Source: Patescibacteria group bacterium
Lineage (GTDB): Bacteria; Patescibacteriota; Microgenomatia; UBA8517
Reading direction: 5' to 3'
Assembly: GCA_022868165.1 (NCBI GenBank)
Contig: JALHYA010000004.1
Coordinates: 16,457-80,456, forward strand
Length of the DNA: 64,000 bases
This document shows, piece after piece, positions 25,567-47,741 of the stretch. The position numbers and the translations under genes are program-made. The notes beneath the pieces were generated by a model, which did no database searches, was not told the DNA's origin, and was given only the letters and a program-made list of their open reading frames with translations. Every line of letters begins with the position of its first letter. The first letter of the stretch is position 1.

Positions 25567-26361
25567 ATGGATGACAACCTGCCGAATCCGCAAGGGGATA
25601 CCCAGAACCTTGCCAAAATGACAACTCCACCTACTGGAACACCTCCCATACCTCCAACCACGCCGGCTCCTTCTGCGTCGGTCTTAACTCCGACACCAAC
25701 CCCGCCGCCGACCCCCCCAGTGCCTAGTGCCTCAAAGCCTAATTTGATGCTTTGGATTTCTTTGGGAATTTTGGCGTTGGCCGCCATTGCGGGCGGAGCA
25801 TATTATTTCCTCAAGGGAACCTCGACAAAGCCAGTACCCACGCCGGTACCCGTTGCCCCAACTCCAATCCCAACCCCGGTAGATAGAACCACCGGTTGGC
25901 TGACTTATACAAACACAAAGAATAATTTTTCTTTCAAATATCGCCCGGACGCCAAGGTTCAGGAGCAAACAGACGGAACAATAAATCTTACCCTTTTGGG
26001 ACCGACTCAAAAAACAGGAACCGAATTTTTCGACGGACTAAACATGACTTTTAAGCCGGGAAGTCTAGGAGGCTTAACGCTTAAAACCTTTGTCGACAAA
26101 AAAATGACTGTGCTTTCCACTGAGGGGGTTGTTTCGGCGACAACCAGCGCAACCATAGCCCAAATGGTAGGGTATAAATTCCATTTGGAGACCATTGTGC
26201 CCTCCGATTATTATTATCTTCCCTTGGGAACGACTTCATACTTGGAAATTGTTGATTTGACCAGAGACCCTTCAAGCCAAGGTTTTGAGCAAAACGCCCA
26301 AGACACGCTCTCGACTATTACGTTTGGTGTAGCTAGCCCATCGGCAACTCCCGCGATTTAA
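25567..26361 (+). CDS. Pro-rich membrane-anchored hypothetical protein
   Basis: Starts MDDNLPNPQ, with a TPPxP-rich N-terminus, a TM helix (LMLWISLGILALAAIAGGAYYF) and an extracytoplasmic domain. TATAAT (25552-25557) lies 9 nt upstream of the ATG. Confidence 0.6.
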   Translation: MDDNLPNPQGDTQNLAKMTTPPTGTPPIPPTTPAPSASVLTPTPTPPPTPPVPSASKPNLMLWISLGILALAAIAGGAYYFLKGTSTKPVPTPVPVAPTPIPTPVDRTTGWLTYTNTKNNFSFKYRPDAKVQEQTDGTINLTLLGPTQKTGTEFFDGLNMTFKPGSLGGLTLKTFVDKKMTVLSTEGVVSATTSATIAQMVGYKFHLETIVPSDYYYLPLGTTSYLEIVDLTRDPSSQGFEQNAQDTLSTITFGVASPSATPAI

Positions 26362-28511
26362 GTTTTGGGCCAAGAAGCATTAATTAAAATAGGGGAGTCG
26401 AACCGTTCTTTTCCTTCTTGCCAAATTACTTCACTGACAAACGGCATAAACGGATGAATAAGTTTTAGAGATTCTTGTAAAACAAACTCCAAAGTTTTCT
26501 GAGCCTGCTCACGCCTATCTTTGCTTTTTTCGATGTATTCATCCGCAAATTTATGCCAGACAAATTCGTATATTTCTCCTGCAGCCTCATTGAGTCTATA
26601 TTTATCAAGCGCCTTGGTTACTTTGCTTGTCGTGCTTTTGAGCTCTTTTAATATTTTTTTGTCTTCGTCGTTCTTTTTAGCTTTTGAAGACGGTTGGGCC
26701 AGCACAAACCTTGCAATATTCCAAACCTTGTTGGCAAAGTTTCTTTGACCGCGAATATTGTCTTCGGAAAGGGAAATATCGTTTTCCACCAAAGCTCCCC
26801 AGACCATTCCCATTCTCATAGCATCCGCCCCGTATTTATTGGCCATGTCAATCGGGTCAATTACATTTCCCTTTGACTTGGAAATCTTTTGTCCTTCCTT
26901 ATCCCTAACCAATCCATGAATTACAACGTCTCTAAATGGAACATCGCCGGTTGCATAAAGCCCGAGCATGATCATTCTTATGACCCAGAAAGGGAGAATA
27001 TCGTAGGCCGTTTCCATAACTGAGGTTGGATAAAAATAGTTGTAGTCTTCGAATTTTTCTTTATTGGAAATTCCACTCGACGATAGGAGAGTGGCATATG
27101 GCCATTGGCCAGACGAAAACCAGGTGTCGAAGGTGTCCGGGTCCTGAACAAACTTGTCGTGCCCACAACTGGGGCATTTGACAGGCTCAGCCCCGTCTGT
27201 AACGGTCCACTTCATACATTTGTCGCAGCGAAAAGCCGGAATTCTTATTCCCCAGACAATTTGTCTTGAAATATTCCAATCCCTGAGGTTTTTAAGCCAG
27301 TGCTTGGCAATTTTTTCGTAGCGTTCTGAAACAAATTTCACTTGACCTTTAGTTATGGCTTCCAGTGCTTTTTTGGCCAAGGGCGTGATTTTTATAAACC
27401 ATTGTTTTGAAAGCATCGGCTCAATTAGGCCCTTGTCCCTATAGCAAAGTCCAACCACGTGCGCTATTTTTTCTATCTTTTTGATTTTGCCGGCCGCTTC
27501 GAGGTCTTTTACAACTTCTTGTCTTGCTTCTTCCACTTTCATTCCGACATATTTAGAGGGAGTATTCTTCATCCTTCCGGCCTCATCGATTACGCTGACA
27601 ATTTGCAGCTTGTGCTTTTGCCCGATTTCAAAGTCGGTCGCATCATGCCCTGGAGTAATTTTGAGAGCTCCCGTTCCGAAATCTTTATCAACCAAAACAT
27701 CCTCAATTATCGGAAGCTCACGCTCAACCAAGGGTAAGAGGGCGGTTTTGCCGACAATGTCTTTATATCTAGCATCATTGGGATTAACCGCAACCGCAAC
27801 ATCCGCAAATATCGTTTCCGGCCGGGTTGTGGCGATTGTGATTGTTCCGTAGTCCAGATAATACAAATTGTCTTCCCGTTCAACCGAATCAACCTCAAGC
27901 TGTGAATATGCCGTGCCGCAGCGGGGACAATAGTTAACTATTCTTTCGCCCCTATAAACCAACCCTTCGTCATAGAGCTTTTTGAATGTTTTATAGACTA
28001 TCTTGATAATTTCGGGGTCGAGGGTAAATTTGTTTCTTGTCCAGTCGCAGGAAGCACCCAAAATTCTAAGCTGACTTTCCATGGTGGATTTATTTTTTTG
28101 AACATCATCCCAAATCATCTTATAAAGTGTGTCTCGGTCATAGTCGAAGCGGCTTTTGCCTTCGACTCTTAGCTTCCTTTCAAAAACAAACTGCGTTTCA
28201 ATTCCGGCATGGTCTGCGCCCGGAAGCCAAAGCGTGGATTCGCCCTTCATCCTGTGATAACGAATTAAAATATCTTCGATTGCGATAAAACGTGCATGGC
28301 CAACATGTAGAGGGTCGGAAGCATTGGGAGGAGGCATAATTATGGTGAACGGAGGCATCCGACGTCCTGAGCTCTTCGAGTCTGAGCCTGAGGGCTCATC
28401 CCTCAGAGTCGAATGACTTGTCGAAGGAAGGCTTGGGCTAAAGGCGCCGGACTTTTCCCACATTTCATAGATTTTCGCCTCAAAAAGAGCGTGATTATAT
28501 GCCTTGTCCAT
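26358..28511 (-). CDS. valS: valine--tRNA ligase
   Basis: 717 aa with the HIGH region PPPNASDPLHVGHA, WLPGADHAGIETQ, and the KMSKS variant KISKSKGN. Confidence 0.85.
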   Translation of the reverse strand: MDKAYNHALFEAKIYEMWEKSGAFSPSLPSTSHSTLRDEPSGSDSKSSGRRMPPFTIIMPPPNASDPLHVGHARFIAIEDILIRYHRMKGESTLWLPGADHAGIETQFVFERKLRVEGKSRFDYDRDTLYKMIWDDVQKNKSTMESQLRILGASCDWTRNKFTLDPEIIKIVYKTFKKLYDEGLVYRGERIVNYCPRCGTAYSQLEVDSVEREDNLYYLDYGTITIATTRPETIFADVAVAVNPNDARYKDIVGKTALLPLVERELPIIEDVLVDKDFGTGALKITPGHDATDFEIGQKHKLQIVSVIDEAGRMKNTPSKYVGMKVEEARQEVVKDLEAAGKIKKIEKIAHVVGLCYRDKGLIEPMLSKQWFIKITPLAKKALEAITKGQVKFVSERYEKIAKHWLKNLRDWNISRQIVWGIRIPAFRCDKCMKWTVTDGAEPVKCPSCGHDKFVQDPDTFDTWFSSGQWPYATLLSSSGISNKEKFEDYNYFYPTSVMETAYDILPFWVIRMIMLGLYATGDVPFRDVVIHGLVRDKEGQKISKSKGNVIDPIDMANKYGADAMRMGMVWGALVENDISLSEDNIRGQRNFANKVWNIARFVLAQPSSKAKKNDEDKKILKELKSTTSKVTKALDKYRLNEAAGEIYEFVWHKFADEYIEKSKDRREQAQKTLEFVLQESLKLIHPFMPFVSEVIWQEGKERFDSPILINASWPKT

Positions 28512-28526
28512 GCTGATGCTATTATA

Positions 28527-29009
28527 TCAGCACCTGGCTTTGGAGAGAATGAATTTACGAATCTCGGGGGCGACATCGGAAGTAAATTTGTTAAGGACTT
28601 CCCCGGCCGGTACCCAGGCAATTTCGGCAATTTCATATGTTTCGCCATTTTTGGGAGTTTGATTTGCCTTGGGGGTGCAATCAAAATATGCAACTTCAAC
28701 AAAAGTATCGGGATGTTTGCGTTCCAAGAGTTTTTTTACAACCTTAACATCCAATCCGACTTCTTCTTTTGCTTCCCGGATAACCGCCTGCTCATCCGTT
28801 TCATCATCCTCAATAACGCCGCCCGGAAATGCCCACTCCAACTTAAGAAGTCTAACCTTTCTTCTTATGAGTAGAAATTTTCCGTCTTTGACAATCAAGG
28901 CAAGGACCACTTTGGGTTTAAAAACCCTTTTCTCTTTACGCATGAGGCTATTATACACCCGCTTTAATAGTTCTTCTTGCTTTTTTTGGACTCTTAATCG
29001 CTGTCGCAA
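28527..29009 (-). CDS. NUDIX hydrolase (start uncertain)
   Basis: Carries the Nudix box GGVIEDDETDEQAVIREAKEEVGL. The internal ATG at 28943 (MRKEKRV...) is an alternative start. Confidence 0.75.
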   Translation of the reverse strand: MRQRLRVQKKQEELLKRVYNSLMRKEKRVFKPKVVLALIVKDGKFLLIRRKVRLLKLEWAFPGGVIEDDETDEQAVIREAKEEVGLDVKVVKKLLERKHPDTFVEVAYFDCTPKANQTPKNGETYEIAEIAWVPAGEVLNKFTSDVAPEIRKFILSKARC

Positions 29010-29132
29010 TTCTTAGAAAAGAAGCGGTATTGGGGCTTCTGGGAATGCAGGAAAAGGCGGAATAATCTTCAAAGCATCCTTTTTACCGTTCCTTTTTGAT
29101 TATAGGATTAAGAATTGGTACAATTCGCACAT

Positions 29133-29687
29133 ATGGAGAGGATAGGTAGAAGGGACTTCCTTAAAATTATAAAAGTGGCGGGGGGAGGATTGATCTTGGC
29201 AGGCTGCGGGATTCCTACACCCCATCCAACTCCCGAGGCCGAAGAGGGAGAAATTTTTAGAGGAATAGTGGCAGATCCGGAAGATGGCTCTTTATGGGTT
29301 ATCCTTGATGAAGATTACAGAATTGTAGGAAGCTCGGCTGGAAGCTTCTATCGCTGGGTACCGGAAGAATCTATACCCGTAGATGAAAGACAAGATGGGG
29401 TAAGGTGGGGATTGTGGTCGAATAGGGAAGGGCGAGGAAGGATAAGGTTTATGAGGCTGGAAGGTTTTCAGGGAGATTTAAATTCTTCTATTTTCTTGGC
29501 GGATGCGAATAATGGAACTATCTGGAGAATGGTTGATAGAGACTACAAACTAGTTGGTAACTACCAAGGTATATTTGACGGTTGGGTGGATGAGGAAGAG
29601 GGAATTCGTAGCGGCAGATGGTCAAATAGAGAAGGTTATGGCACAGTCGGATTCGTGTGCATAGAAGAGCCGGAAGAGACTAAATAA
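29133..29687 (+). CDS. Tat-signal lipoprotein with internal two-fold repeat, unknown function
   Basis: Starts MERIGRRDFLKIIKVAGGGLILAGCG, which combines a twin-arginine motif (RRDFLK) with a lipobox (LAGC). Two repeats follow, of the form ADxxxGxxWxxxDxDYxxVGxxxGxFxxWVxEE...WSNREGxG. Confidence 0.65.
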   Translation: MERIGRRDFLKIIKVAGGGLILAGCGIPTPHPTPEAEEGEIFRGIVADPEDGSLWVILDEDYRIVGSSAGSFYRWVPEESIPVDERQDGVRWGLWSNREGRGRIRFMRLEGFQGDLNSSIFLADANNGTIWRMVDRDYKLVGNYQGIFDGWVDEEEGIRSGRWSNREGYGTVGFVCIEEPEETK

Positions 29688-29750
29688 ATCCTCTAGTGGT
29701 AAAATAGTGACTAACTAAACCACTTGTTGGTTTTGAAGCGTTAACCTAAA

Positions 29751-31076
29751 ATGAGAGAAAGAATGCCTGAACAGAAGTCTGAAATAGTTGAGGTTCCCCA
29801 TGAGGAATTTGTAGCGCGGGCTATTGTCGAAAACGCCAGAAACATGGCCCGTTTTTCAATTGGCCAAACCCCGCCCCCCAACTTTGATTTGGAGAGAGCA
29901 ACCGATTTGGAAGTTGCAAGACATCTTTCTGATGTACAAGTTGACGACAAAAGTCTAGCACAAGATATAAAAGAGGCTCTTGATAGAAATCTCGCAGACC
30001 CGGATGAAGCTTTTCAGGCAGCAAGCCTGACAGTAGCCAAAGCCATAGCTACAGAAGAAGTCGTATTGCCGAATGAAAGAGGATTCTTTAAAAGAGTCTC
30101 CGATAAAGTGGCAAAAGAGATGGGTCAGCTTATCGCCTCAAAATCCGGGAAGAGAGGTTTAGCTGTAGTTTCTGGCCTTTCGCTTGTCGCCACCGCCTGC
30201 GGTCAGGTTGCCCAAGGAGCAGAACCCTTAAGGCCAATAGACCTTGAAACTCCGACTACCGTGGCCACAGAGGTCAGACCTACCAGCACTCCTTTTTCAC
30301 CGGTTCCGCCAACCGAAATAGCCACCCCCACCCCCGAAGCGGTTAGGGATGAGTGGCAGGTATCGGCAGACGGGCTTATTCTTTACAATGAAGCAGAGTT
30401 ATATGACGGGATGTTTACTATAAACCCGGAACGAACAGGATATCTTTACGAACAACTGATGCGGAGTCTTTATCAAATTAACGTGGCGGGGGAAAATATG
30501 CCCTTCTTAAGACAATTTCCGACTCTCGAAGCTTTTATTCAATATGCCCATACTGGACAACCCATAAATAATATGTGGATTGCCATTGACCACCCGGGAA
30601 GCGGGGTAAGGTACCTGTATCAAGCAACTTGGGCTCCAGTTGAACCCGTAGACCTTTCCTCAACGGCCGTTGCTATTGTCCATCTAACCTATGATGATAT
30701 CGTGCATCCTACCACCCGGGACGAAAGGCCATTCTTTCCCGTCGAGGAGGGCGTGGGCGAGCTGGTAATAGAAAGGGTGGAAATAAACGGCGGTTTTGTC
30801 ATAAGGTTTACTTTCCGGCAAAGTCTTTATGATGACTCGGACTATGGCACTTTAGGGCTGTCAGATGATTATCCTTCGGAGCATAATTTGGCGGCAATAA
30901 CCCAGCTTATGAATGCTTGGTCTTGGGAAGTCGACCATATGAGGGATGATGAGGACGATATTCGTATAACTGGTGCGACCCCGCCCATATTCAACATAAC
31001 CAAAAGTTGGCCCAGTGAGGGGGAATTTAGAGAAATGGCAGAAGATGTTGAGAACTCTCCTTTTGTGCTTCGTTAA
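29751..31076 (+). CDS. hypothetical membrane-anchored/secreted protein
   Basis: 441 aa with an internal hydrophobic segment (GLAVVSGLSLVATACGQ) followed by a Pro/Thr linker. I recognised no family motif. Confidence 0.65.
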   Translation: MRERMPEQKSEIVEVPHEEFVARAIVENARNMARFSIGQTPPPNFDLERATDLEVARHLSDVQVDDKSLAQDIKEALDRNLADPDEAFQAASLTVAKAIATEEVVLPNERGFFKRVSDKVAKEMGQLIASKSGKRGLAVVSGLSLVATACGQVAQGAEPLRPIDLETPTTVATEVRPTSTPFSPVPPTEIATPTPEAVRDEWQVSADGLILYNEAELYDGMFTINPERTGYLYEQLMRSLYQINVAGENMPFLRQFPTLEAFIQYAHTGQPINNMWIAIDHPGSGVRYLYQATWAPVEPVDLSSTAVAIVHLTYDDIVHPTTRDERPFFPVEEGVGELVIERVEINGGFVIRFTFRQSLYDDSDYGTLGLSDDYPSEHNLAAITQLMNAWSWEVDHMRDDEDDIRITGATPPIFNITKSWPSEGEFREMAEDVENSPFVLR

Positions 31077-31122
31077 GTCACTTGAAAGATTTACCTTTTT
31101 TTGTAAAGATTAAGGTAGGTAT

Positions 31123-31641
31123 ATGAATAAGCTTCTTTATATTCTATTTGGTATAGTATTTGTCCTTGCTACTGTTTTAGGGGTGTTGTATGAAAGACGG
31201 GGAGGCTTGGTATTTTTGAGTAAAGACAAAATAAACTTCATAAGTAGTAAGAGCGGATTTGAGTGGGAAGTAAACGAAGATTTTGTGCGTTCGCTCGAAG
31301 AGTTGATTAGGACGAAAGAGGGCTCCGAATCGAAGAAAGTATTGGTAGTTCTCTCCTCCGAATTCAAACAAACACCCGAAGGTGGGGGATATGGAGAGCT
31401 TGAACCGTTTGTTTATGCAGAGTGGAGTTCTTCTGGAAATCGGGATACTTTAAATATCTACCTTGATGGCAATATTTGGAAGCAAATAGAAGAAAAGAAG
31501 AGAAATACCCCTGTGTCTTATCTGATATCTCAACAAATTCTGCAACACTTTGAGATGACCGATGAACCTTTAGAGAAGATTACTGAAGATATTTTTAACA
31601 ATGGACCAAAAATTTCTATTAAGGAAAGTTCAATTTTTTAA
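31123..31641 (+). CDS. membrane-anchored hypothetical protein
   Basis: 172 aa with an N-terminal TM helix (LLYILFGIVFVLATVLGVLY). Confidence 0.6.
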   Translation: MNKLLYILFGIVFVLATVLGVLYERRGGLVFLSKDKINFISSKSGFEWEVNEDFVRSLEELIRTKEGSESKKVLVVLSSEFKQTPEGGGYGELEPFVYAEWSSSGNRDTLNIYLDGNIWKQIEEKKRNTPVSYLISQQILQHFEMTDEPLEKITEDIFNNGPKISIKESSIF

Positions 31642-31648
31642 ATTTGCC

Positions 31649-33265
31649 ATGAGGAAACTAATATTGCTAATCTTTTCAGGTTTGATCTTTATTGCATTAT
31701 TTGTTGTCCCCAAAAACATTCAGGCTGCTTGTACTGGTAATACGAAATGCGCACCTTATAGTGGAGGCCATTGTTGGTGGGAGGAGAGTATGTACTATAC
31801 AGTAGGCTGTACCGCCTCGCCACAGTGCGAGGGGAATCCCTGTAATAAGGCCATTTGCCTAGTATCCGATACCTGTGCTTATGTCTGTAATCCTGGTGCA
31901 ACAACTTGTGGTCCTTGTTCCAAAACTTGTGGAGGAGGAATAAGTCTCTGTACGAATGGGTGTAGTTCGTGGAATGTGAATTGTAATACCCAGGCTTGTC
32001 CTCCGCCTGGCTGTCTTTGTGGTAACTGGGTGGACGGCGCCTGCGGTGTTGGTTTATGCGGCTCCAGCGAGCGGCAGCAAACAAGAACCTGTGTCCCTGC
32101 CGCCTGTGCCGCCGAAACCCAATGCGTTGTCGATCCAACTTGTACACTTCCTTCCAGTTGCACCGTTGATCTTCTACCGGCAACAGCCACAACATCAGTG
32201 GGCTCAAGCGTAACGCTTACGGCTTCGGTTACGGTAGGAAGTGGAACCGTTGACCAGGTAAATTTCACTTCTGCCAATACGGGGATTCTTACGGTAAGCC
32301 CGGCTTCCGACAGCACCGTGACGTATCAAACGCAGGCAACAGGGGTGGCCATTGGTTCAACTACCGTATCCACAGAGGTGATTATGGGCGGGGTTTCAAC
32401 TTGCGCTGATAGTGCTGGGTTAGGCGGAGGCACAGTTGTTAATGTGACTTCCGCAGGCCCTTGGTGGCAGGTGATTGATGCGGATATTACAACAAATGGA
32501 AGCATAACATCCAGCATTCCTGGAACTTGCGCCTTGCCGGGATGTAATCCCTTGTTTGATTTGGTCGGCCCCGGAGGCTATCCTGGTGTGCCTGCTTACG
32601 GGGGAACGGCAAGTTTTAGTACAGGCACGGTTTCTACTATTGGATGGCTGGCAAACACTTTAAGTCTAACTTCCAATAACCGGCAATATGCATATGCCTG
32701 GTTTAAGAGACTGATTCCTTCGGATGTAACTATGAATGAGATAACTTCACCTTCCATTGACGGCACCGAGCTTTCTTCAGGGGGAACGGCCAGTGGGGGA
32801 TACTATTATTACCGTTATGACGGCTCAAGCGGGCTGGATTTAACCATAAACACCGATGCTTCGTTGGGCACAAGAAAGGTAATTTTGCTGGTGGACGGGG
32901 CAGATTTGAACCTAAACGCAAGGATTAACTTCACAAAGGGACAGGGATTCTTTATGGCTTTTGTCGGCAAAACCCTGCTGGGGGCCAAGGGTAACATCAA
33001 TGTTTCTTCAACGCTTGGCGGAGGAGTCACACCCCATCTTGAAGGATTGTATGAAGCCGATGGCGCTTTCCATTCAGGAGCAGGAACAACACAGCTTTAT
33101 ATTCGCGGGTCTGTTGCGGCATATGGGGGAATGAATTTGGAACGGAATTTGACCGATAATTCCGCCACCCCGGCCGAAGTCTTTGAATACGCGCCCGATT
33201 TAATCTTCACCTATCCCTATAAACTTAGGGAAAGAAGGATCTTCTGGCAAGAAGTAGCCCCATAG
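31649..33265 (+). CDS. secreted surface protein with thrombospondin-type-1-like Cys repeats and a Big_2-like Ig domain
   Basis: The signal peptide is MRKLILLIFSGLIFIALFVVPKNIQA. CGPCSKTCGGGISLC and W..GACGVGLCGSSERQQTRTC resemble TSR cores (CSxTCGxG...R.R.C). TVDLLPATATTSVGSSVTLTASV...LTVSP is Big_2-like. I moved the start from 31601 to ATG 31649. Confidence 0.6.
   Translation: MRKLILLIFSGLIFIALFVVPKNIQAACTGNTKCAPYSGGHCWWEESMYYTVGCTASPQCEGNPCNKAICLVSDTCAYVCNPGATTCGPCSKTCGGGISLCTNGCSSWNVNCNTQACPPPGCLCGNWVDGACGVGLCGSSERQQTRTCVPAACAAETQCVVDPTCTLPSSCTVDLLPATATTSVGSSVTLTASVTVGSGTVDQVNFTSANTGILTVSPASDSTVTYQTQATGVAIGSTTVSTEVIMGGVSTCADSAGLGGGTVVNVTSAGPWWQVIDADITTNGSITSSIPGTCALPGCNPLFDLVGPGGYPGVPAYGGTASFSTGTVSTIGWLANTLSLTSNNRQYAYAWFKRLIPSDVTMNEITSPSIDGTELSSGGTASGGYYYYRYDGSSGLDLTINTDASLGTRKVILLVDGADLNLNARINFTKGQGFFMAFVGKTLLGAKGNINVSSTLGGGVTPHLEGLYEADGAFHSGAGTTQLYIRGSVAAYGGMNLERNLTDNSATPAEVFEYAPDLIFTYPYKLRERRIFWQEVAP
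33147..33265 (+). repeat. 119-bp perfect direct repeat, copy 1 (3' end of CDS 31649..33265); putative attL
   Basis: Checked base by base, this copy is identical to 39509-39627. Confidence 0.95.
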
Positions 33266-33306
33266 TCTCAAATCCCGAAGTTCTGAAAGTTGCAGGCGAC
33301 ACAAAA

Positions 33307-33336
33307 TTGGACGATAGGCGAGTTGGGCCTTATAAT
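33307..33336 (+). promoter_or_regulatory. candidate island promoter
   Basis: TTGGAC (33307-33312), an 18-nt spacer, then TATAAT (33331-33336), ending 20 nt upstream of ATG 33357. Confidence 0.4.
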
Positions 33337-33356
33337 AGTTTCTCAATAGTATATAT

Positions 33357-33923
33357 ATGGTAGACATCGACAGACTCAGGACATTGCCTGGAGAGGAATT
33401 GGTAAGGCTCGCTTTAAAAGGTGAGGTTATTCTAGCCAGCGAAGAAGGCATTGGAATTCTTGATGGCCAAATCGACCGAACAAAAAATGAAGCAGCTTCG
33501 CTTAAGCTAAGGCTAGGAGAAGTCGCTCGCCAGGACCCAGATTTGCCGGAAAATATAGAATTTAAGGAAATCAAAACCAAGTTACAGTTTGAGATCCCCA
33601 GAAAATTAGACGACTTGGGAAGGAAAAAAGCAAAAACAATAGTCTTTCAAGAAAACCAGGATGGAGCTATCCGTTTTGGAACTCTATTTGAAGCTCGGAT
33701 AGAGTATCCCACTGAGACTACCTCTGGGGTATTTGTTTTTTTGGGACCCATAGAAGCAGCCGCCGGAAAAATTGAGGCCAAACCTGAGGCCCAAGTTATT
33801 TCTTACCTGTCTGTAGTCGGAAAGGCTTTATGGGGTTATGATCCAAATAGTGGTAAACCGGTTCAGTTTGAGACGCCAGCTGGCAAGGCTACTTGTATTG
33901 TTAAAAAAGTTTTCAAGCCGTAA
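33357..33923 (+). CDS. GreA/GreB-family transcription elongation factor homolog
   Basis: 188 aa. The coiled-coil tip ARQDPDLPENIEFKEIK parallels GreA (GDLSENAEYHAAK). The C-terminus VISYLSVVGKALWGYDPNSGKPVQFETPAGKATCIVKKV parallels the GreA C-terminal domain. Confidence 0.65.
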   Translation: MVDIDRLRTLPGEELVRLALKGEVILASEEGIGILDGQIDRTKNEAASLKLRLGEVARQDPDLPENIEFKEIKTKLQFEIPRKLDDLGRKKAKTIVFQENQDGAIRFGTLFEARIEYPTETTSGVFVFLGPIEAAAGKIEAKPEAQVISYLSVVGKALWGYDPNSGKPVQFETPAGKATCIVKKVFKP

Positions 33924-34585
33924 TGATCGAGTCCAAAGAAAGTTCATATCTTTTGTATGGTCCTCCCGCAAGTGGTAAAACTGCACTTGCCCTCGAATTA
34001 AGCAGGAGGATTGCCAAGGAGTACATTTCAGTTGGCGAGCTTACTCGTAGGGAAATCGAATTAGGAACACCTAGGGGTAAAAGACTTCAGAGGTGTTTAG
34101 ACGAAGTTACCGAATATCCAATAGAGTTAATTACAGGATTGGTAGAGGAGAGCATTGTTGCTTGTATGTCGGCGGGCGAGAATTTCATTTTAGATGGTTT
34201 TCCTAAATATGCCCAAGAGGCTCGAGCGTTCGTAAAACTATTAGAAAAACACAGGATTCTCCTAGATGCAGCAATTGTAATTGACCTACCCGTTGAAGGA
34301 GCTTTTGTGCGAGTTCTTAACAGAAGAATTTGTGTTTCCTGTCTAGCGCAAACAGAAGATGGCGGACAAATATGTCCGCAATGTGGAGATGCCCTTACTA
34401 TAAGAGACGACGATATCCCACCCATATTTAAAAGAAGGTATAATGACTATAAGGACTCAATAGACGAAACACTTAGAATTATCGGACCATTTTGTAAGAG
34501 GATAATCCACATACAGGGCTCACAAAGCAAAGAAGATTTATTTAATTTGCTGTATATAAAATTATCCCTTTCCATGCCCGAGTAG
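33923..34585 (+). CDS. adenylate-kinase-like nucleotide kinase with zinc-lid
   Basis: 220 aa with P-loop YGPPASGKT, ILDGFPKYAQEA (compare LDGFPRT), and lid CVSC...CPQCGDALTIRDDD. Confidence 0.7.
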   Translation: MIESKESSYLLYGPPASGKTALALELSRRIAKEYISVGELTRREIELGTPRGKRLQRCLDEVTEYPIELITGLVEESIVACMSAGENFILDGFPKYAQEARAFVKLLEKHRILLDAAIVIDLPVEGAFVRVLNRRICVSCLAQTEDGGQICPQCGDALTIRDDDIPPIFKRRYNDYKDSIDETLRIIGPFCKRIIHIQGSQSKEDLFNLLYIKLSLSMPE

Positions 34586-34651
34586 CTCAGCAGAGAGAGC
34601 GGTTGCGTTGTAAGCAACAGGTCGATGGTTCAAGTCCATCCTCGGGCTCCA
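34576..34651 (+). tRNA. tRNA-Thr (anticodon UGU), CCA encoded, atypical D-loop
   Basis: I folded the cloverleaf by hand. The acceptor GCCCGAG/CUCGGGC has 7 of 7 Watson-Crick pairs. The D stem is GCUC/GAGC, the anticodon stem GUUGC/GCAAC, and the loop G-U-UGU-A-A. The T arm is GAUGG-UUCAAGU-CCAUC, followed by U-CCA. The D-loop AGCAGAGA lacks the usual GG, and position 32 is G. Confidence 0.8.
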
Positions 34652-34658
34652 ACAGTTT

Positions 34659-35576
34659 ATGAAAAATAAGGCCATTTTTACTTGGAAAGAGATCGTAGAA
34701 CTTTTAACTGGAAATGGTCACGCGGTTTCTTGTGCAGACATGAGTTCTCTGATTACATACTCCAGACAGCGTGGAATAGGCACGGCTATTTCTTATCAAA
34801 AAACCTCGTACTCAGAAGAAGGCTTGAAAAATCTTAAACGACTTGTTCGGTGGTGGATTTATCTAGACGATTTCACTATCCCCGAGTGGAGAAACGCTAT
34901 TATTACAAAAAAGATTCAAAAAATAGTTGTCGGCTCGTTAAAAAATAACTTACCTCTGACTTTGTACGCAGTATTCTGTCCTTCCTACAAAAAAGGGGTT
35001 GGAGTATCTGGATATACTGGGAAATTAGGAATGCATACCAAAAGGTATATTCAAAAAATGTCAGAATTCGTTCTTTCCACGGAAGATGCGGGCTTGAAAG
35101 TAAAAGGGACAGCCTTTTTTAGCGACCTTCTTTTAGAAAATTACAAAAGACTTGTCGGAACGAACTATAAAAAGGATCTCGCGTCCAACTTTCGAGAATT
35201 CAAAAAAGATATTAAAAAAAACAGTAAAGGAAAAATAAAAAGTGCTCTTTTGTCATCTATCATGGCCCTTAAGCGTGATGTCGGGGAGAAAGGGATAAAG
35301 ACTGGCCCTTTGGGGATATCAGGTGAGCTTTTTAATACGGTCTTTAAGAGGAATAGAGTTTTTTATACAAACCAGCTTGGCTGGTCGGAGCCCATGGTAA
35401 AAGAAAGAACGGAGGTCTTGGCCAGAAGTTACGCAAAACTTGGGGAATACTTTAGGAAGAAATATCCCGAGGGAATTATGTTTTGGGTAGAGAGTGCTTA
35501 CGAGAGGGGTGCCATGTATAGCGGAAACAATCAGCAGGACCCTATTCCAATAATTTATCCCAAAAAAGATGAATGA
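34659..35576 (+). CDS. hypothetical protein (island orphan)
   Basis: 305 aa and Lys-rich. I recognised no family motif. It overlaps the downstream gene by 8 nt. Confidence 0.7.
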   Translation: MKNKAIFTWKEIVELLTGNGHAVSCADMSSLITYSRQRGIGTAISYQKTSYSEEGLKNLKRLVRWWIYLDDFTIPEWRNAIITKKIQKIVVGSLKNNLPLTLYAVFCPSYKKGVGVSGYTGKLGMHTKRYIQKMSEFVLSTEDAGLKVKGTAFFSDLLLENYKRLVGTNYKKDLASNFREFKKDIKKNSKGKIKSALLSSIMALKRDVGEKGIKTGPLGISGELFNTVFKRNRVFYTNQLGWSEPMVKERTEVLARSYAKLGEYFRKKYPEGIMFWVESAYERGAMYSGNNQQDPIPIIYPKKDE

Positions 35577-36546
35577 CAATTCCAAAATAGAGGGGCTTCT
35601 AAGCAACTTGGAACTTGAGTGGTTTAGGCTGGGCCGAGATTTCCACCTCGATTTTGAATTTCTTACAAATCTTTACAGCAAGGAGAAAAAACATATTTTC
35701 GAACATAGCCCCTATCATGTACTCTCCTATTTACGATTCAAAAACCAGCTCTACGGTATTTCAGGCAGATTTGGTTCTCTAGTTTTGGTTTCGAGAAAAG
35801 ATGACAAATTTCTATTTACCCCTCGCATTGACGACTTTAAATCATTCGAGCTTTTTATCAAAGCAATTAAAAGGAGCCTCGGGGTTACCAAAATTGAAAT
35901 TCGGAACGTCAGTGAGCAATGGTTACAATCATTCCTGGTGAATGTATCAAATGTTGCGAAAAGGGGGATGTCTGTGAAAGAGCGCTCAAGGGAGGAGGCT
36001 ATCTATGATGTCGACCTGTTGTGCGAACTCCGCGGAAAAGATTTTGCAGGGATTAGACAATCCAGAAATAAGTTGTTAAACAGTGGAAGTATTCAGTTTA
36101 AGCCCTTTACTAAAATTTCCTTAAAGGACGGTGTAGGGGTCTTAAATAAATGGCAGAAAGTCCAAGGTTGGAAGTATGTTAAAGAGAGAATAGAGAAAGA
36201 GAAATATGTACTTGCGAGATTTTTTGATTTTTCTCGGTTAACAAAGAATGTATTGTGTGGGGTTGGCTATTATAAGGAAGTGCCTTTAAGTATTCTGGTT
36301 ATGCACCTTGTTCCAAACGGGGAAAAAAGCGGAACAATCTACCTACTTAAAGGAATAAACAGGCCTTCTGACGGGGGCACCCATGGAATATCAGATGCTA
36401 CTTACTGTTACGCTTTCCTTAGAGCTAAGGAGATGGGTATAAAATACCTCAATGATGGAGAATTGGGAACAGAAGAGGGTACAAGGAGACACAAACTCAA
36501 TTTTAAGCCGATAGAATTTCTCAAATCCTACGACGTTTTGCTCTAA
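35569..36546 (+). CDS. DUF2156-type (MprF/LysX C-terminal-like) putative aminoacyl-tRNA-dependent transferase
   Basis: 325 aa. EEAIYDVDLLCELRGKDFAGIRQSRNKL and the C-terminal YLNDGELGTEEGTRRHKLNFKP match the pattern I recall for DUF2156 (…Y…L..L.G......R...N.F … N.G......GL..FK..F.P). Confidence 0.55.
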   Translation: MNDNSKIEGLLSNLELEWFRLGRDFHLDFEFLTNLYSKEKKHIFEHSPYHVLSYLRFKNQLYGISGRFGSLVLVSRKDDKFLFTPRIDDFKSFELFIKAIKRSLGVTKIEIRNVSEQWLQSFLVNVSNVAKRGMSVKERSREEAIYDVDLLCELRGKDFAGIRQSRNKLLNSGSIQFKPFTKISLKDGVGVLNKWQKVQGWKYVKERIEKEKYVLARFFDFSRLTKNVLCGVGYYKEVPLSILVMHLVPNGEKSGTIYLLKGINRPSDGGTHGISDATYCYAFLRAKEMGIKYLNDGELGTEEGTRRHKLNFKPIEFLKSYDVLL

Positions 36547-36548
36547 AT

Positions 36549-37688
36549 ATGAAACAGCTAAGAACGAATGAGTTTTATAACGAGATCGAATTTGAAAAAA
36601 TTTTCCCCCCTCAACTTTATGAAAATTTCAACTCTGAATTGCCAGCACCACTAAATGGACGGACAACAATTTTCACCTTATATGGCAGAAATGCTCTGTA
36701 CCTTGGTGCGAGAGAGATGTTAAATTTGACTAAAAGAAACATTGTGCTAGTTCCGGCCTACTCGTGTGGGGATGAAATAGCTCCATTTGTAGCTTCCGGT
36801 TGCAGAATTAAAGCTTACCGTGTACACCCTGAAACCTTGCAGGTAGATAAAAAGGATATTGAGCAGAAATTGGATCAGAATGTTTCTGCGGTTTTGATAA
36901 CACACTATTTTGGTTTTCCTCAAAAGGAAATAGAAATTATAAAAAAGATATGTGGAGAAAGGGGAGTCGTACTTATTGAAGACTGTGCCCACGCTTTTGC
37001 GGGTGGATTTAAAAACATCCCCCTAGGTGCTTTTGGGGACTTTTCCATTTTTAGTTTAAGAAAGTTTTTGCCTATTCCGCATGGGGGAGCTCTGGTCATA
37101 AATAACACGAAGATAAACAGACCAAATCCCCTCCCGCCACCGGCTACGGCAGTAAATCTTGACCTTTTTCTTTATTCGGGTTACCAGGCTGGTATTTTTA
37201 CGCGAGGAATAAACATTCAGGACACACTCGATATGGTAGGTGTCAAACAAAAAGATTTACATGGCCCACGGCTAAAAGAGTTTGGTGGTTATAATTTAGG
37301 TCTTTCCAATGTTGCAAAAGTTCTAATCGCATTTATTGCAAAGCAGAAATTGTGGACAAAGAGAAGATCAAACTTTCTTTATTATTTGGACTTTTTCGAA
37401 AAGAATTCGCATAAATCGGTGCAACCGCTGTTTGAATTCCTTGAGAAAGGGGTAGTACCTTTATTTTTTCCTGTTCTAGTAAACGACTCTGAAGAGATAT
37501 ATAAAAGATTGAGAGACAAGGGCCTTTTTGCTGGACAACCATTCTGGTCTGATTCCCATACCTATTTCAACTGGGCTGATTTTTCGCCCTTAAACGAGCT
37601 GAAGAAGAAGGTTATGGTTTTGCCAGTGAATCATAGAGTCCATTATCGAGACTTAAAGCGTTTCCTTGAAGTTTCAGACTATAGGTAG
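36549..37688 (+). CDS. DegT/DnrJ/EryC1/StrS-family PLP-dependent aminotransferase
   Basis: 379 aa with VLITHYFGFPQ, LIEDCAHAFAGG, and FSIFSLRKFLPIPHGGALV, which places the Lys at the PLP position. Confidence 0.75.
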   Translation: MKQLRTNEFYNEIEFEKIFPPQLYENFNSELPAPLNGRTTIFTLYGRNALYLGAREMLNLTKRNIVLVPAYSCGDEIAPFVASGCRIKAYRVHPETLQVDKKDIEQKLDQNVSAVLITHYFGFPQKEIEIIKKICGERGVVLIEDCAHAFAGGFKNIPLGAFGDFSIFSLRKFLPIPHGGALVINNTKINRPNPLPPPATAVNLDLFLYSGYQAGIFTRGINIQDTLDMVGVKQKDLHGPRLKEFGGYNLGLSNVAKVLIAFIAKQKLWTKRRSNFLYYLDFFEKNSHKSVQPLFEFLEKGVVPLFFPVLVNDSEEIYKRLRDKGLFAGQPFWSDSHTYFNWADFSPLNELKKKVMVLPVNHRVHYRDLKRFLEVSDYR

Positions 37689-37700
37689 TATAATTCTTTT

Positions 37701-38978
37701 ATGTGTAGAGACATGTATATACTGTTTGGGCCTCCTGGAAGTGGTAAAACTGTCCAGGCGAGATTTTTGTCCCAAAGGTTGAAACTGGACGGTATTTCAT
37801 GGGGTGACATCTACTGGGGTACAAAGTTTAACAAGAAGTACAAGGGACAAATTGCTGTAATAAAGAAGGAGGCTATCTCTGACAGAACTCGCTCGAAGGA
37901 GATAGCAAAGATAATTGACAAGGAAATTGGCAGCCTTACTTTACGAAATAAAGGCGGGAAGCGGGGGTTGGTTTTGGACGGATTTCCTAGAAGATTGGGA
38001 GAGGCTAGACTCCTTCTTAAAATATGCAAGAAAAGGGGATACAGAATAAAATCCTTGATTCGCATAAATCCATCTTTAGATTTTTCAGCGAACCGCTTCA
38101 AAAAAAGGCTTTTTTGTGAAAAATGCCGCGCTTATTACGATGAACTCAATCTACCCAAGAAGAAGGGTCGTTGTGATTTAGACGGCGGAAGGCTATCTCA
38201 TATGGATATTTCAAAGGAGAGTGTGGCGAAAGAATTTAACACCTATTTAGACGAATGTCTCGAAACATTTGAATATCTCAAAGATTATGCAGACATTTTT
38301 TTTGATGTAACTGGCGACGATGAAGATATGGTTATTTCTTCAAATATTCTTATTAAAATAAAGAATAGAATTCGAGAAAATTATAGTCTCTTTTCAAGAA
38401 AGCCCTCTACATCTATTATGACTAAGTACGGTAGTTTTAAGCTTGTACCCTATCAATCACGACTAGATTATTCCTACCACTTAGCGCTTGTAAAGGGAAA
38501 CGTTAGAGATGGAAAACGAGTACTGGTTAGGGTTCATTCCTCTTGCATAACCGGAGATATTTTTGGGTCCTATATGTGTGATTGCGGAGAACAACTAGAG
38601 GAATCCATGAAAAGAATCGAGCACGAAAAGAGGGGAGTTTTAATATATTTATTTCAGGAAGGCAGGGGCATAAACATGATTAACAAAATTCAAGCTTACA
38701 GGTTACAACGCAATGGGTATGACACAGTGGATGCTAATGAAGCCATCGGTTTTCCAGCCGAAATGAGGGACTACCGGTTAGTGAAGGAGGTTTTGGAGGA
38801 TTTGGGGGTAAAAACAATTAGATTGTTGTCCAATAGTCCCGAGAAGATCAATAAACTTACAGACCAGGGAGTTATTATAGAAGAAATGGTTGGAGTCGAA
38901 GTAGAGCCTCGAAAGTGGAACAGAGGATACTTGCTTACAAAAAAGGAGAAAATGGGTCATAAGTTGGATGTTTCATAA
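37701..38978 (+). CDS. fusion protein: adenylate-kinase-like N-domain + GTP cyclohydrolase II (RibA-like) C-domain
   Basis: The N-domain has LFGPPGSGKT, LDGFPRRLGEA and lid CEKC...CDLDGG. The C-domain has VRVHSSCITGDIFGSYMCDCGEQL, conserving the three Zn Cys of RibA, plus QEGRGINMINK...GYDTVDAN...LLSNSPEK. ATG 37713 is an alternative start. Confidence 0.75.
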   Translation: MCRDMYILFGPPGSGKTVQARFLSQRLKLDGISWGDIYWGTKFNKKYKGQIAVIKKEAISDRTRSKEIAKIIDKEIGSLTLRNKGGKRGLVLDGFPRRLGEARLLLKICKKRGYRIKSLIRINPSLDFSANRFKKRLFCEKCRAYYDELNLPKKKGRCDLDGGRLSHMDISKESVAKEFNTYLDECLETFEYLKDYADIFFDVTGDDEDMVISSNILIKIKNRIRENYSLFSRKPSTSIMTKYGSFKLVPYQSRLDYSYHLALVKGNVRDGKRVLVRVHSSCITGDIFGSYMCDCGEQLEESMKRIEHEKRGVLIYLFQEGRGINMINKIQAYRLQRNGYDTVDANEAIGFPAEMRDYRLVKEVLEDLGVKTIRLLSNSPEKINKLTDQGVIIEEMVGVEVEPRKWNRGYLLTKKEKMGHKLDVS

Positions 38979-39507
38979 TAATATGAAAGTTGTTTTAGGG
39001 TCCACAAGTGATGATAAAAAAAGAATTGTAAAGGCAGCCCTGAAATCTCTTGGTGTAAAGGCTGTGATTGAGGGGGTTACTGTCTCTTCGGGGATAAGTG
39101 AGCAGCCTTTAGATAAAAAGACCACGATTTGCGGTGCAGTGAATCGGGCGGTAGAAGCCTTGAAAATTAAAACCGATTCGGACCTCGCTGTGGGGTTAGA
39201 GGGGGGCTTGGATCGAGTAAAAGATTCAGGCTTTTTTCTTGTGTGTGCGGCTGCTATATATGACAAAAGCGGAGGAATCTATCTGGGAACGAGCAGGAAA
39301 ATAAAACTTCCCAAAGAAGTATCTGAAAAAATAGAGGAGGGGGCATTTTTCGGAACGGTAATTAGAGAATATAGAAAGAAAGTAAGAAAAAATAAGGCAT
39401 TGTTTAATCTTTCAGACCAACTTATAACAAGAAATGTCCCTTTTTCAGAGGCAATACGAAACGCCTATAAATCTTTCAAAGAAGGTACACTCTATCAAAA
39501 GTTTTAG
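38968..39507 (+). CDS. YjjX-family non-canonical purine NTP phosphatase (ITPase/XTPase)
   Basis: MKVVLGSTSDDKKRIVKAAL...VSSGISEQPL...GAVNRA...LAVGLEGGL resembles the inosine/xanthosine triphosphatase family. ATG 38983 is an alternative start. The stop ends 1 nt before repeat copy 2. Confidence 0.6.
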   Translation: MFHNNMKVVLGSTSDDKKRIVKAALKSLGVKAVIEGVTVSSGISEQPLDKKTTICGAVNRAVEALKIKTDSDLAVGLEGGLDRVKDSGFFLVCAAAIYDKSGGIYLGTSRKIKLPKEVSEKIEEGAFFGTVIREYRKKVRKNKALFNLSDQLITRNVPFSEAIRNAYKSFKEGTLYQKF

Positions 39508-39508
39508 G

Positions 39509-39627
39509 ATTTGACCGATAATTCCGCCACCCCGGCCGAAGTCTTTGAATACGCGCCCGATTTAATCTTCACCTATCCCTATAAACTTAGGGAAAGAAGG
39601 ATCTTCTGGCAAGAAGTAGCCCCATAG
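39509..39627 (+). repeat. 119-bp perfect direct repeat, copy 2 (orphan copy of the gene 3' end); putative attR
   Basis: Identical to 33147-33265. It ends 2 nt before the convergent tsaD stop codon (39630-39632). Confidence 0.95.
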
Positions 39628-39629: not shown

Positions 39630-40835
39630 TTAGGCTGAATCGACAATCGTCATCTCCGCGTTAGCTGAAATCTTTTCCAAGGAAGCGGGTTTGTTGTTGA
39701 AAAAGGCATATGAGGCGATATATGCGGCGTTGTCCGTGCAGAGATTTGCGGGAGGAAATCGTAAATCAACTTTTAACTTTTCACTTTTCACTTTTAACTC
39801 AAATACTTGTCGAAGACGAGTATTAGCCGATACTCCTCCAGCTAAAAGAAGGGATTTGGGCTTGAATTTCTTTACTGCGTCCAGAGTCTTTTTAACTAAA
39901 ACGTCAACGATTGCCTCCTGTATTTCTGCTGCCAGCCTGGAAGTTAGAGGTGGGAAGCTTGAAGCTGGATGTAGATGTTGGAGTTTAGATTTATTCCAAC
40001 TTCTAACTTCTTTGTCCAGCTTCTCACCTCTATTTTCCAATTTCTCTGTTTCCCTAAGCACCGCTGTCTTAAGGCCCGAAAAACTGAAGTCAAAATTATC
40101 CTCATCAATCATCGGTCTGGGAAGTAGATTTAGTTGGAAGTGGGAGGCAGGAGGCTGGAAGTTCGCTGCGGCGGCGGCGATGGCTGGTCCTCCCGGGTAG
40201 GGAAGTCCCAAAAGACGGGCGGACTTGTCAAAAGCCTCGCCGGCCGCATCATCCCTTGTTCCTCCAATCCACTCTATTTTTCCCCGCCCGCCAGCGCTAC
40301 GCGCAAGCGTTGCGGGCGCGGCGTGGCCTTTCATCAGAACCAAATCCGTATGTCCTCCGGAAACAACCAGTGCCAGTGCCGGAAATTCCGGCCGACTATC
40401 CGTTAGCCAGTTGGCGTATATGTGTGCCACAAGATGGTTAACCGGAATAACAGGCTTTTTCCATAAATAGGAAAGGGTTTTGGCCGTTTCTACTCCGACC
40501 AAAAGGGAACCAATAAGGCCCGGCCCGACGGTTACGGCAATGGCGTCTATATTGGAAGATAGAAGATGGAGGTTTGAAGCTAGATTTTGATGTTGGATAT
40601 TAGATTTTTCCTCCAACTTCGAACTTCTAACTTCAGAGACAGTACTTAGTGCTTCGGAGATAACAGGAAGAACGCTGAGAACCTGCTGGCGTGCAGCCTG
40701 CTCCGGGATTACGCCGCCAAATTTGGCCTGCATTTCCGCGCTCGATGCAACAACATTGGAAAGAATTTTTGTTCCGTCTTCGACAACTGCCGCTGCAGTT
40801 TCATCACATGAGGTCTCTATCCCCAGAATTTTCAT
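39630..40835 (-). CDS. tsaD: tRNA N6-adenosine threonylcarbamoyltransferase TsaD, with low-complexity insertions
   Basis: Contains MKILGIETSCDETAAAVV, AIAVTVGPGLIGSLLVG, VVSGGHT, GGTRDDAAGEAFDK, FSFSGLKTA and LAGGVSANTRLR. At 401 aa it is longer than typical TsaD proteins, which as I recall are about 330-350 aa. Confidence 0.9.
   Translation of the reverse strand: MKILGIETSCDETAAAVVEDGTKILSNVVASSAEMQAKFGGVIPEQAARQQVLSVLPVISEALSTVSEVRSSKLEEKSNIQHQNLASNLHLLSSNIDAIAVTVGPGLIGSLLVGVETAKTLSYLWKKPVIPVNHLVAHIYANWLTDSRPEFPALALVVSGGHTDLVLMKGHAAPATLARSAGGRGKIEWIGGTRDDAAGEAFDKSARLLGLPYPGGPAIAAAAANFQPPASHFQLNLLPRPMIDEDNFDFSFSGLKTAVLRETEKLENRGEKLDKEVRSWNKSKLQHLHPASSFPPLTSRLAAEIQEAIVDVLVKKTLDAVKKFKPKSLLLAGGVSANTRLRQVFELKVKSEKLKVDLRFPPANLCTDNAAYIASYAFFNNKPASLEKISANAEMTIVDSA
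39768..39800. repeat. tandem heptamer repeat (AACTTTT/CACTTTT x4) inside tsaD
   Basis: The sequence aacttttaacttttcacttttcacttttaactc encodes ELKVKSEKLKV on the coding strand. Confidence 0.75.
39936..40046. repeat. GGAAGTT-type palindromic heptamer element, in-frame inside tsaD (copy B)
   Basis: The left half is ctggaag|ttagagg|tgggaag|cttgaag|ctggatg... The right half is ...ccaacttctaacttctttgtccagcttctcacctcta. The arms are mutually complementary, and the element is homologous to 40551-40640. Confidence 0.75.
40551..40640. repeat. GGAAGTT-type palindromic heptamer element, in-frame inside tsaD (copy D)
   Basis: The sequence is attggaagatagaagatggaggtttgaagctagattttgatgttggatattagatttttcctccaacttcgaacttctaacttcagagac. 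With copy B it shares gatgttgga..ttagattt..ccaacttc..taacttc. Confidence 0.75.
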
Positions 40836-47732: not shown

Positions 47733-47741
47733 GGGTGAATT

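Follow-up and report, generated by a model that had tools for sequence, protein, structure and literature searches.

Integrase-less satellites of genomic islands are found at the 3' ends of genes for tRNAs or for proteins, e.g. in tycheposon-type arrays. Orphan arrays at rhs, cdiA and type VI secretion system (T6SS) effector-immunity loci have been proposed to arise via homology-facilitated illegitimate recombination (HFIR; Kirchberger et al. 2017, PMC5361080, citing Jackson 2009 and Koskiniemi 2014), and in S. aureus a non-proteinogenic tRNA-Gly serves the Fem transferases (FemXAB; Raina & Ibba 2014, PMC4052509). Here we compare such systems with a 6,243-bp island in a 64-kb stretch of DNA from a groundwater-type Patescibacterium; this whole stretch is called the window, and all coordinates are window positions. 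The island carries seven co-oriented, tightly packed open reading frames (ORFs) and one tRNA-Thr(UGU), and it is bracketed by a perfect direct repeat of the 3' end of a surface-protein gene. It is a rare, conserved, tRNA-dependent enzyme cassette of Patescibacteria, not a classic mobile element, and we estimate at about 0.55 the probability that it recombined into the locus by way of its homology to the surface-protein gene's 3' end and had no recombinase of its own to do so.

Patescibacteria have tiny genomes with few recognisable mobile elements, and how they gain several genes at once is poorly understood. The closest relatives of the host in the genome collection are Woesebacteria-like (TsaD 50-59% and GroEL ~85% identical). 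L-numbers denote comparison loci from other assemblies or contigs.

The repeat and the cassette between its copies

Positions 33147-33265 and 39509-39627 are identical at 119 of 119 positions and form the sole long direct repeat in the window; that 119 nt should match by chance is effectively impossible. Copy 1 comprises the last 39 codons and the stop codon of the surface-protein gene, whereas copy 2 is an orphan that begins 1 nt past the last island stop codon (TAG, 39505-39507) and stops 2 nt short of the tsaD stop codon (39630-39632). On the two copies, their identity and their positions the first-pass annotation of the window, made from the sequence letters, proved accurate. The repeat copies, the genes that flank them and the cassette are arranged as follows:

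31601..33265 (alternative start 31649), plus strand: secreted Cys-rich surface-protein gene (ORF, translation, 69 homologues)
33147..33265, plus strand: direct repeat copy 1, the last 39 codons and TAG stop of the surface-protein gene
33357..33923, plus strand: GreA/GreB C-terminal-domain protein of Rnk-like size (Pfam PF01272, 22 bits, below cutoff)
33923..34585, plus strand: adenylate-kinase-like P-loop kinase with a zinc-ribbon lid (Pfam ADK, 6.7e-21)
34576..34651, plus strand: tRNA-Thr(UGU) (ARAGORN; Rfam tRNA, 63 bits)
34659..35576, plus strand: 305-aa protein with no family assignment, the cassette marker (Rossmann fold like that of class-I aminoacyl-tRNA synthetases (aaRS) and cyclodipeptide synthases (CDPS))
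35569..36546, plus strand: homologue of DUF2156/LPG_synthase_C-type (MprF C-terminal, FemX-like) aminoacyl-tRNA-dependent transferases (PF09924, 34.0 bits, cutoff 27.5)
36549..37688, plus strand: DegT/DnrJ/EryC1-family pyridoxal phosphate (PLP) aminotransferase (Pfam, 2.6e-21)
37701..38978, plus strand: fusion of an ADK-like domain and GTP cyclohydrolase II (Pfam GTP_cyclohydro2, 7e-61, and ADK; zinc cysteines present)
38968..39507, plus strand: DUF84 (YjjX-type) ITP/XTP-ase, the last cassette gene (Pfam NTPase_I-T, 6.9e-28)
39509..39627, plus strand: direct repeat copy 2, the orphan (displaced or duplicated) surface-gene tail
39630..40835, minus strand: tsaD, the right-hand neighbour, convergent on the orphan tail (TIGR03723, 345 bits; synteny)

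Eight genes plus a tRNA had been counted in the interval before; there are in fact seven protein ORFs, listed at NCBI as MCJ7805295-301 (seven accessions), and the tRNA-Thr(UGU). The island is the lowest-GC 6.2-kb stretch of the window (GC 0.400 vs 0.436), and its GC3 is likewise reduced (0.378 vs 0.424, p=0.006), so the suspicion that it is richer in A/T held, whereas the suspected excess of lysine (9.7% vs 7.6%) amounts to a trend only (p=0.08). Similarly, the term accessory island was apt for a discrete unit that is foreign to its locus, but what the unit contains is a conserved tRNA-dependent enzyme cassette and not a generic mobile element.

Pfam and NCBIfam searches with the seven island proteins revealed no integrase, transposase, relaxase or other recombinase family, in line with the first-pass annotation, and Pfam searches with 33 more ORFs of the window (40 of 59 in all) found no integrase, transposase or relaxase. 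There is no terminal inverted repeat at 33266/39508. Next to ten other cassettes, described below, no recombinase is present either, save for an IS200-type Y1 transposase 2 kb away in L030. In the literature we found no report of integrase-less, repeat-flanked islands in the Candidate Phyla Radiation (CPR).

The integrated order of genes is found on a 210-kb NCBI contig (locus tags MUP46_01475-01525). The window sequence is also present in the Logan k=31 assembly of run SRR19116065, where the island forms a contig of its own of 6303 nt, i.e. the island plus 30 nt of the repeat at each end, and where the contig on the tsaD side begins 30 nt inside copy 2. As both island/repeat junctions are present in independent k=31 Logan contigs, they are real in the reads. 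For a contig with an empty site, an exact look-up of the surface protein, with its two candidate starts, gave no match in the collection, and the Logan contigs end in the repeat.

Among the cassette proteins, the ADK-like domain::GTP cyclohydrolase II fusion passes the ribA equivalog-domain cutoff (TIGR00505, 220.9 bits vs 205.85), and an HSSC...CDCG motif, which we take to be the zinc site of GTP cyclohydrolase II, is visible in its translation. The gene of the GreA-like protein is found at either end of the cassette and on either strand elsewhere; in the precomputed Pfam column its homologues are marked PF01272 at several loci, unmarked in L021/L023 and weak or faint in L029-L032. The 305-aa protein belongs to a rare family (106 representatives at E<=1e-3 among 1.84 billion), with no relative in IMG/VR, INPHARED or PLSDB. 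Its fold supports a relationship with aaRS and CDPS, while a sequence search against solved structures returned nothing meaningful. In this family natural fusions to DUF2156 (five), to the ADK-like kinase (two) and to NDK (one) occur (P0111, P0112, P0118, P0136, P0165, P0127, P0128 and P0162, all homologues of 34659-35576). As such Rosetta-stone fusions join the 305-aa protein to DUF2156, ADK and NDK, its neighbours in the cassette may be regarded as functional partners. A PADLOC scan for defence systems returned P-loop noise only.

The cassette and duplicated gene tails in other genomes

The same gene order is present in 11 independent genomes from several lineages of Patescibacteria, and the neighbourhoods always differ. 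The cassette is found, e.g., after rho, after tRNA-Tyr and a gene for a tRNA-editing (YbaK-type) domain, beside metal- or redox-related genes, between the genes for a penicillin-binding protein (PBP) and TyrRS, or between those for RNase III and S16. The last two positions lie in a backbone that three genomes share (PBP, RecG, NusB, ACP, RNase III, S16, KH, PilM; ~50% amino acid identity): within this backbone the cassette sits at PBP|TyrRS in L025 and at RNase III|S16 in L027, and L055 has no cassette within the stretch examined. The cassette seems to move as a unit.

Both flanks of every cassette were compared for repeats, and in three of the 11 independent genomes (the window, L021/L034 and L035/L036) the host gene upstream of the cassette has its 3' end repeated on the far side. 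In L021/L034 the duplicated piece is the end of rho from its last 15 codons through the stop (47 nt, 94% identity), and the orphan lies 19 nt past the last cassette gene. In L035/L036 it is a 207-nt piece (90% identity) of a homologue of the window's surface-protein gene, comprising the last 53 codons and 45 nt downstream, and the orphan begins 4 nt past the stop codon of the DUF84 gene. Each of these two architectures was recovered in two separate assemblies, and since the repeat copies have diverged in both of them, they are not assembly artefacts. A 38-nt match between the flanks of the Paceibacterota cassette L030 (4691-4728 and 11140-11177, 87%) is a terminator-like perfect palindrome and was not counted as a gene-tail repeat. 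The first-pass annotation had proposed the recent insertion of a circular element at the 3' end of a target gene, by a Campbell-type or a site-specific event, with no recombinase found in the interval; two further genomes now support insertion anchored on a gene end without a recombinase, whereas the site-specific event fits poorly with targets and 5' edges that vary.

The surface-protein family, of which we collected 69 homologues, is defined by a C-terminal domain of ~270 amino acids that is distributed Patescibacteria-wide and ends W-x-E-[VI]-A-P-stop; in L055 a member lies beside type IV pilus genes. Orphan tails of this family bracket other cargo as well (L035 and L054). In L035 (3845-13502) five surface-gene tails follow each other in series, all ending W-x-E-[IV]-A-P-stop, and they separate an ORF of 83 amino acids, the cassette, a paralogue of that 83-aa ORF and two genes on the minus strand that appear UppS-like and methyltransferase-like as read from their translations only. 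The two 83-aa ORFs are coiled-coil-like and 55% identical, and the unit of tail plus 83-aa ORF, which is present twice, is a mosaic with 90% identity over the first 207 nt and much lower identity thereafter. In L054 (11128-11648) an insert of 445 nt contains an NTP_transf_2 nucleotidyltransferase gene and an ORF of 50 amino acids, and the surface homologue beside it has 40 nt of its tail duplicated around the insert (95%), both differences between the copies being synonymous. The surface-protein homologues of L052 and L055 have no orphan tails, and that of L055 is tightly convergent on its neighbour, just as the empty site of the window would be.

Every orphan (in the window, L021 and L054, and all four in L035) keeps the extreme 3' end of its gene with the stop codon, while the 5' edge varies and lies ~7, 12, 15, 20-23, 31, 39 or 53 codons before the stop. 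The differences between tails and orphans comprise 13 synonymous and 8 non-synonymous ones, where 23% synonymous differences are expected (binomial p=1.6e-4); the pair in the window is identical and hence uninformative on allelic divergence. As the differences are mostly synonymous, they suggest that both copies evolved as coding sequence, as would be expected of a donor and a resident allele. Taken together, these genomes bear duplicated gene tails as a scar that recurs, and the island is a rare, conserved and relocating cassette, which adds to what the first-pass annotation had described.

Around the island itself, the following features complete the host locus:

26358..28511, minus strand: LeuRS-like class I aminoacyl-tRNA synthetase (Pfam tRNA-synt_1, Anticodon_1, LeuRS editing domain), adjoining tsaD in L003-L014
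28512..33146, strand not applicable: lineage-specific stretch that precedes the cassette, with a NUDIX gene, three secreted or membrane proteins that lack annotation, and the surface-protein gene except for its tail
28527-29009, minus strand: NUDIX gene, the only Pfam match in the 28512..33146 block
33306..33336, plus strand: TTGGAC-N18-TATAAT, a promoter-like consensus match that precedes the first gene of the cassette

In 12 of 12 relatives tsaD lies directly beside a homologue of the LeuRS-like gene, which in the window marks the left edge of the lineage-specific block, and no homologue of the cassette genes, of the surface-protein gene or of the genes in the block is found within 10 kb of tsaD in these 12 genomes. 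The first-pass annotation had asked whether the surface-protein gene is directly convergent on tsaD in relatives, which it is not in these 12; since tsaD adjoins the LeuRS-like gene in them, the whole stretch from 28.5 to 39.6 kb (11 kb) is lineage-specific. In L052 (GroEL 82%) a block with a surface-protein homologue is located elsewhere, i.e. between a homologue of 44575-45384 and groES. The surface-protein target gene itself therefore belongs to the flexible genome. The motif at 33306-33336 had been described as a TTGGAC-N18-TATAAT of the island's own; it is present, but such sites are no commoner in the region than in shuffles (14 vs 12.9), and it is thus a consensus match only and is not counted as evidence.

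Several further observations concern the locus and its surroundings. The orphan tail is in frame with the DUF84 gene (39505-39627), so that read-through of the TAG codon would append D-LTDNS...WQEVAP; this shared frame is probably a coincidence, as the frames differ in L035. The neighbouring tsaD holds two palindromic elements (39930-40035 and 40545-40645, minus strand) of ~90 nt with 80% identity and a hairpin of -45 kcal/mol. They are in frame, ~55 residues are added compared to relatives, and a partial third copy is intergenic (820-866); these in-frame palindromes recall the palindromic elements of Rickettsia. dnaN and dnaA are located at 14734-17538, 16-20 kb to the left, which places the island ~16-22 kb from the likely replication origin. 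The region 132-14163 contains three genes for proteins that resemble type IV secretion system (T4SS) pilins, a gene for a PrgI-family protein and one for a TraG/VirB4-like ATPase, next to genes for large unannotated proteins, as well as a 23S-IVP/bAvd-like gene (865-1230, minus strand). This type-IV-like cluster for secretion or uptake is 20 kb away from the island and may be relevant to DNA exchange. Finally, two copies of a structured element (17874-17978 and 47740-47830), which are 92-95% identical over ~78 nt, match Rfam HgcC below threshold (34 bits vs 50; E 4e-6; minus strand), and behind both copies lie an identical promoter-like box (TTGAAT...TATAAT) and an ATG.

Proposed entry of the cassette and rival explanations

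Entry by homology with the end of the surface-protein gene could follow two routes. In one, a circle that contains the gene tail and the cassette would integrate by a single RecA-type crossover, i.e. by Campbell insertion-duplication. In the other, a linear donor, in which the gene tail is followed by the cassette, would pair with the resident gene, and its far end would be joined illegitimately inside the resident tail (HFIR). Either route would result in an intact gene, followed by the cassette and by an orphan resident tail, behind which the former downstream flank (in the window, tsaD) carries on; as both give the same product, they are not distinguished. The 100% identity of the repeat copies suggests that the event was recent or took place within one population. 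Recombination between the repeats could excise the cassette again as a 6,362-bp circle, and because the repeats in the window are perfectly identical, the island may be prone to loss or circularisation.

A retained 3' end, a variable 5' edge and the bias towards synonymous differences argue against paralogue remnants, against a decaying duplication that originated from staggered cuts and against a recombinase with a fixed core. The last of these, in the form of site-specific integration by a recombinase that is encoded elsewhere, is possible but doubtful. It would make the island a satellite or integrase-less island, with the conserved end of the surface-protein gene as attB and the replacement tail as attP, and the combination of direct repeats, intact gene and orphan tail does match attL/attR islands that restore the 3' end of their target; moreover, L035 resembles tandem insertions at one site, and two cassettes with only 50% amino acid identity target the same gene family. 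However, L021 uses the unrelated tail of rho, which disfavours a fixed-core recombinase further, repeat lengths (47, 119 and 207 nt) and 5' edges vary widely with no fixed core, and similar flanks surround cargo as small as a single 83-aa ORF or a toxin-antitoxin-like module of 445 nt. No such enzyme was detected in the island, in the 40 window ORFs or beside the 11 cassettes, the sole candidate being the IS200-type Y1 transposase of L030. We regard it as unlikely that mobility is not involved at all and that the orphan is what remains of a second, mostly deleted surface-gene paralogue, once located downstream of the cassette and kept identical by gene conversion. Every orphan keeps the 3' end and stop codon and has lost everything upstream, unlike in random paralogue decay, rho, which is normally a single-copy gene, shows the same pattern, and the cassette shifts its position within conserved backbones; on the other hand, tandem paralogous surface-protein genes are frequent in Patescibacteria, and the tail fragments of L035 differ in their divergence and include the twofold unit of tail plus 83-aa ORF.

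Only marginally less probable than a paralogue remnant is mis-threading of the assembly, i.e. that an empty site (surface-protein gene, 2 nt, tsaD) and a separate 6,362-bp circle or tandem multimer, which share the 119-mer, were joined. The length of 119 nt equals a k-mer size of common metagenome assemblers, and it is precisely within the repeat that the Logan k=31 contigs end, which leaves the island standing alone, but the same architecture with diverged repeats (90-94%), which can be neither collapsed nor mis-threaded, is found in other genomes, each in two independent assemblies, the cassette has no replication gene, and the 210-kb NCBI contig shows the integrated order. Least probable, in our opinion, and very unlikely in itself, is a transposition-like insertion in which an enzyme, possibly a cassette protein, would have made staggered cuts 40-200 nt apart, and filling in would have left a long target-site duplication. 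Although the repeats consist of target sequence and lie only 1-20 nt from the cargo, terminal inverted repeats are absent, the repeats differ greatly in length, and different cargoes share the same flanks. Furthermore, no nuclease or transposase fold or family was found in the cassette, whose sole unassigned protein has an aaRS/CDPS-like fold, and a bias towards synonymous differences is not expected of a decaying non-coding orphan.

Entry by homology, which we prefer, has to be weighed against several observations that speak against it or soften its support. The k=31 Logan graph is equally compatible with an integrated island and with a 6,362-bp circle plus an empty site. The joint between cassette and orphan shows no convincing microhomology, with 1-2 nt shared at 33146/39508 by eye. 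Eight of the 11 cassettes have no detectable flanking repeat (none in L022, L025, L027, L032, L038, L046 and L056), so that such a repeat is either not obligatory or decays. The synonymous bias is weaker (p ~0.02, an estimate) when the comparison is with a duplication after which constraint acts on the functional copy only. Finally, the search for recombinases covered 64 kb of a genome of ~1 Mb, which leaves room for a recombinase acting in trans.

The cassette tRNA, the cargo and known systems

The tRNA gene lies directly upstream of the gene for the 305-aa protein in 17 of 17 cassettes examined, and in the window, L021 and L025 the kinase ORF as called overlaps it by 10 nt. ARAGORN assigns Thr to 15 of the 17 tRNAs; the other two have atypical anticodon loops and are called otherwise. 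Although identity among the cassette proteins is as low as 36-58%, the tRNAs hardly vary in their acceptor, D and T arms, and compensatory changes are found at 5/5 base pairs of the anticodon stem. In the anticodon loop only G35-U36 is constant: N34 may be U, C or A, a pyrimidine occupies position 37 in 10/17, U33 is replaced by A33 in 2/17, and loop sizes are odd in 3/17, with ARAGORN calls of Glu or '???' among these. G1-C72, C2-G71, G35 and U36 are the known identity elements for ThrRS. Across the cassette tRNAs decoding constraints have thus been lost and charging determinants retained, as is characteristic of a dedicated donor tRNA. Judged from these sequences, the tRNA fits a role as dedicated aminoacyl donor, kept for threonine charging but released from decoding, and would probably be charged by the host ThrRS. 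It has to be set against this reading that the loop of the window's own tRNA is canonical (U33, UGU, A37), so that this tRNA could simply serve translation.

The cargo probably constitutes one pathway, as far as gene content and fusions can tell. In such a pathway the CDPS/TyrRS-fold protein and the DUF2156 FemX/MprF-like transferase may move threonine onto a nucleotide-derived acceptor, which in turn would be made by the products of the kinase, GTP cyclohydrolase II, aminotransferase and NTPase genes. To our knowledge, Patescibacteria generally lack riboflavin synthesis, and the cargo pairs GTP cyclohydrolase II with two types of enzymes related to users of aminoacyl-tRNA and with a private tRNA-Thr; a literature search found no report of this gene combination in Patescibacteria. 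If true, this would constitute a tRNA-dependent pathway not described before and a further case of a tRNA that is withdrawn from translation. The complete eight-gene module is found at different chromosomal sites, with a duplicated tail as a scar in several genomes, and entry by homology would offer a concrete, testable route of gene gain and loss that needs host recombination only. One may speculate further, although we hold this only tentatively and think it rather questionable as a whole, that the cassette is one of a class of recombinase-free mobile modules of Patescibacteria, each of which would carry the 3' end of a host gene along as its attachment site, excise as a circle when the duplicated tails recombine, pass between cells (competence or type-IV-like uptake systems are encoded by these genomes) and re-enter any genome with a similar tail, and that the cargo is an undescribed pathway in which a decoding-free tRNA-Thr donates threonine, via the CDPS/aaRS-fold and FemX/MprF-like enzymes, to a product derived from GTP cyclohydrolase II.

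Compared with dedicated-tRNA systems (S. aureus tRNA-Gly/FemXAB, MprF and CDPS; PMC4052509), the cassette is alike in that a tRNA gene lies beside relatives of aminoacyl-tRNA users and in that decoding features are relaxed and charging features kept. It is unlike them in that the amino acid would be threonine and that the tRNA is accompanied by genes for GTP cyclohydrolase II, for kinases, for an aminotransferase and for an NTPase. The cargo thus resembles Fem/MprF and CDPS systems, as far as its sequences go, and is not a demonstrated member of any characterised pathway.

With integrase-mediated islands and their satellites the locus shares direct repeats that reconstitute the 3' end of an intact target, tandem arrays at one site and small units that contain only cargo. 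In contrast to att-flanked islands, however, no integrase or other element-borne recombinase was found in or near any cassette, the targets (rho and the surface-protein gene) are unrelated, there is no constant crossover core, and the tRNA gene of the cassette is cargo and not target. DDE/IS-type transposons differ in that inverted repeats and a transposase are absent here and the duplication comprises 119 nt vs the short 2-15 bp. Because the element-borne recombinase and constant core of att islands and these traits of transposons are lacking, we file the locus as a homology-anchored insertion without an element-encoded recombinase. Campbell-type insertion-duplication, as known from suicide plasmids and from lambda-like integration by homology, is alike in that a fragment of the target forms direct repeats around the insert and in its reversibility, and unlike in that neither a circular form nor a replication or transfer function has been seen.

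The C-terminal displacement or orphan arrays (rhs, cdiA, T6SS; PMC5361080) represent the closest known process and differ in that the piece displaced here is a conserved gene end and not a variable toxin domain, that the cargo follows the stop codon and is metabolic or toxin-antitoxin-like with no immunity gene, and that one of the anchors is rho and not a polymorphic surface protein, the hosts being Patescibacteria. Nevertheless, orphan 3' fragments that include the gene end are present in both, and in both the conserved part of a gene for a surface or secreted protein serves as homologous anchor, the incoming DNA would carry its own 3' end together with downstream genes and so displace the old 3' end, which becomes an orphan farther downstream, and arrays such as that of L035 would grow by repetition of the event, with no integrase being involved.

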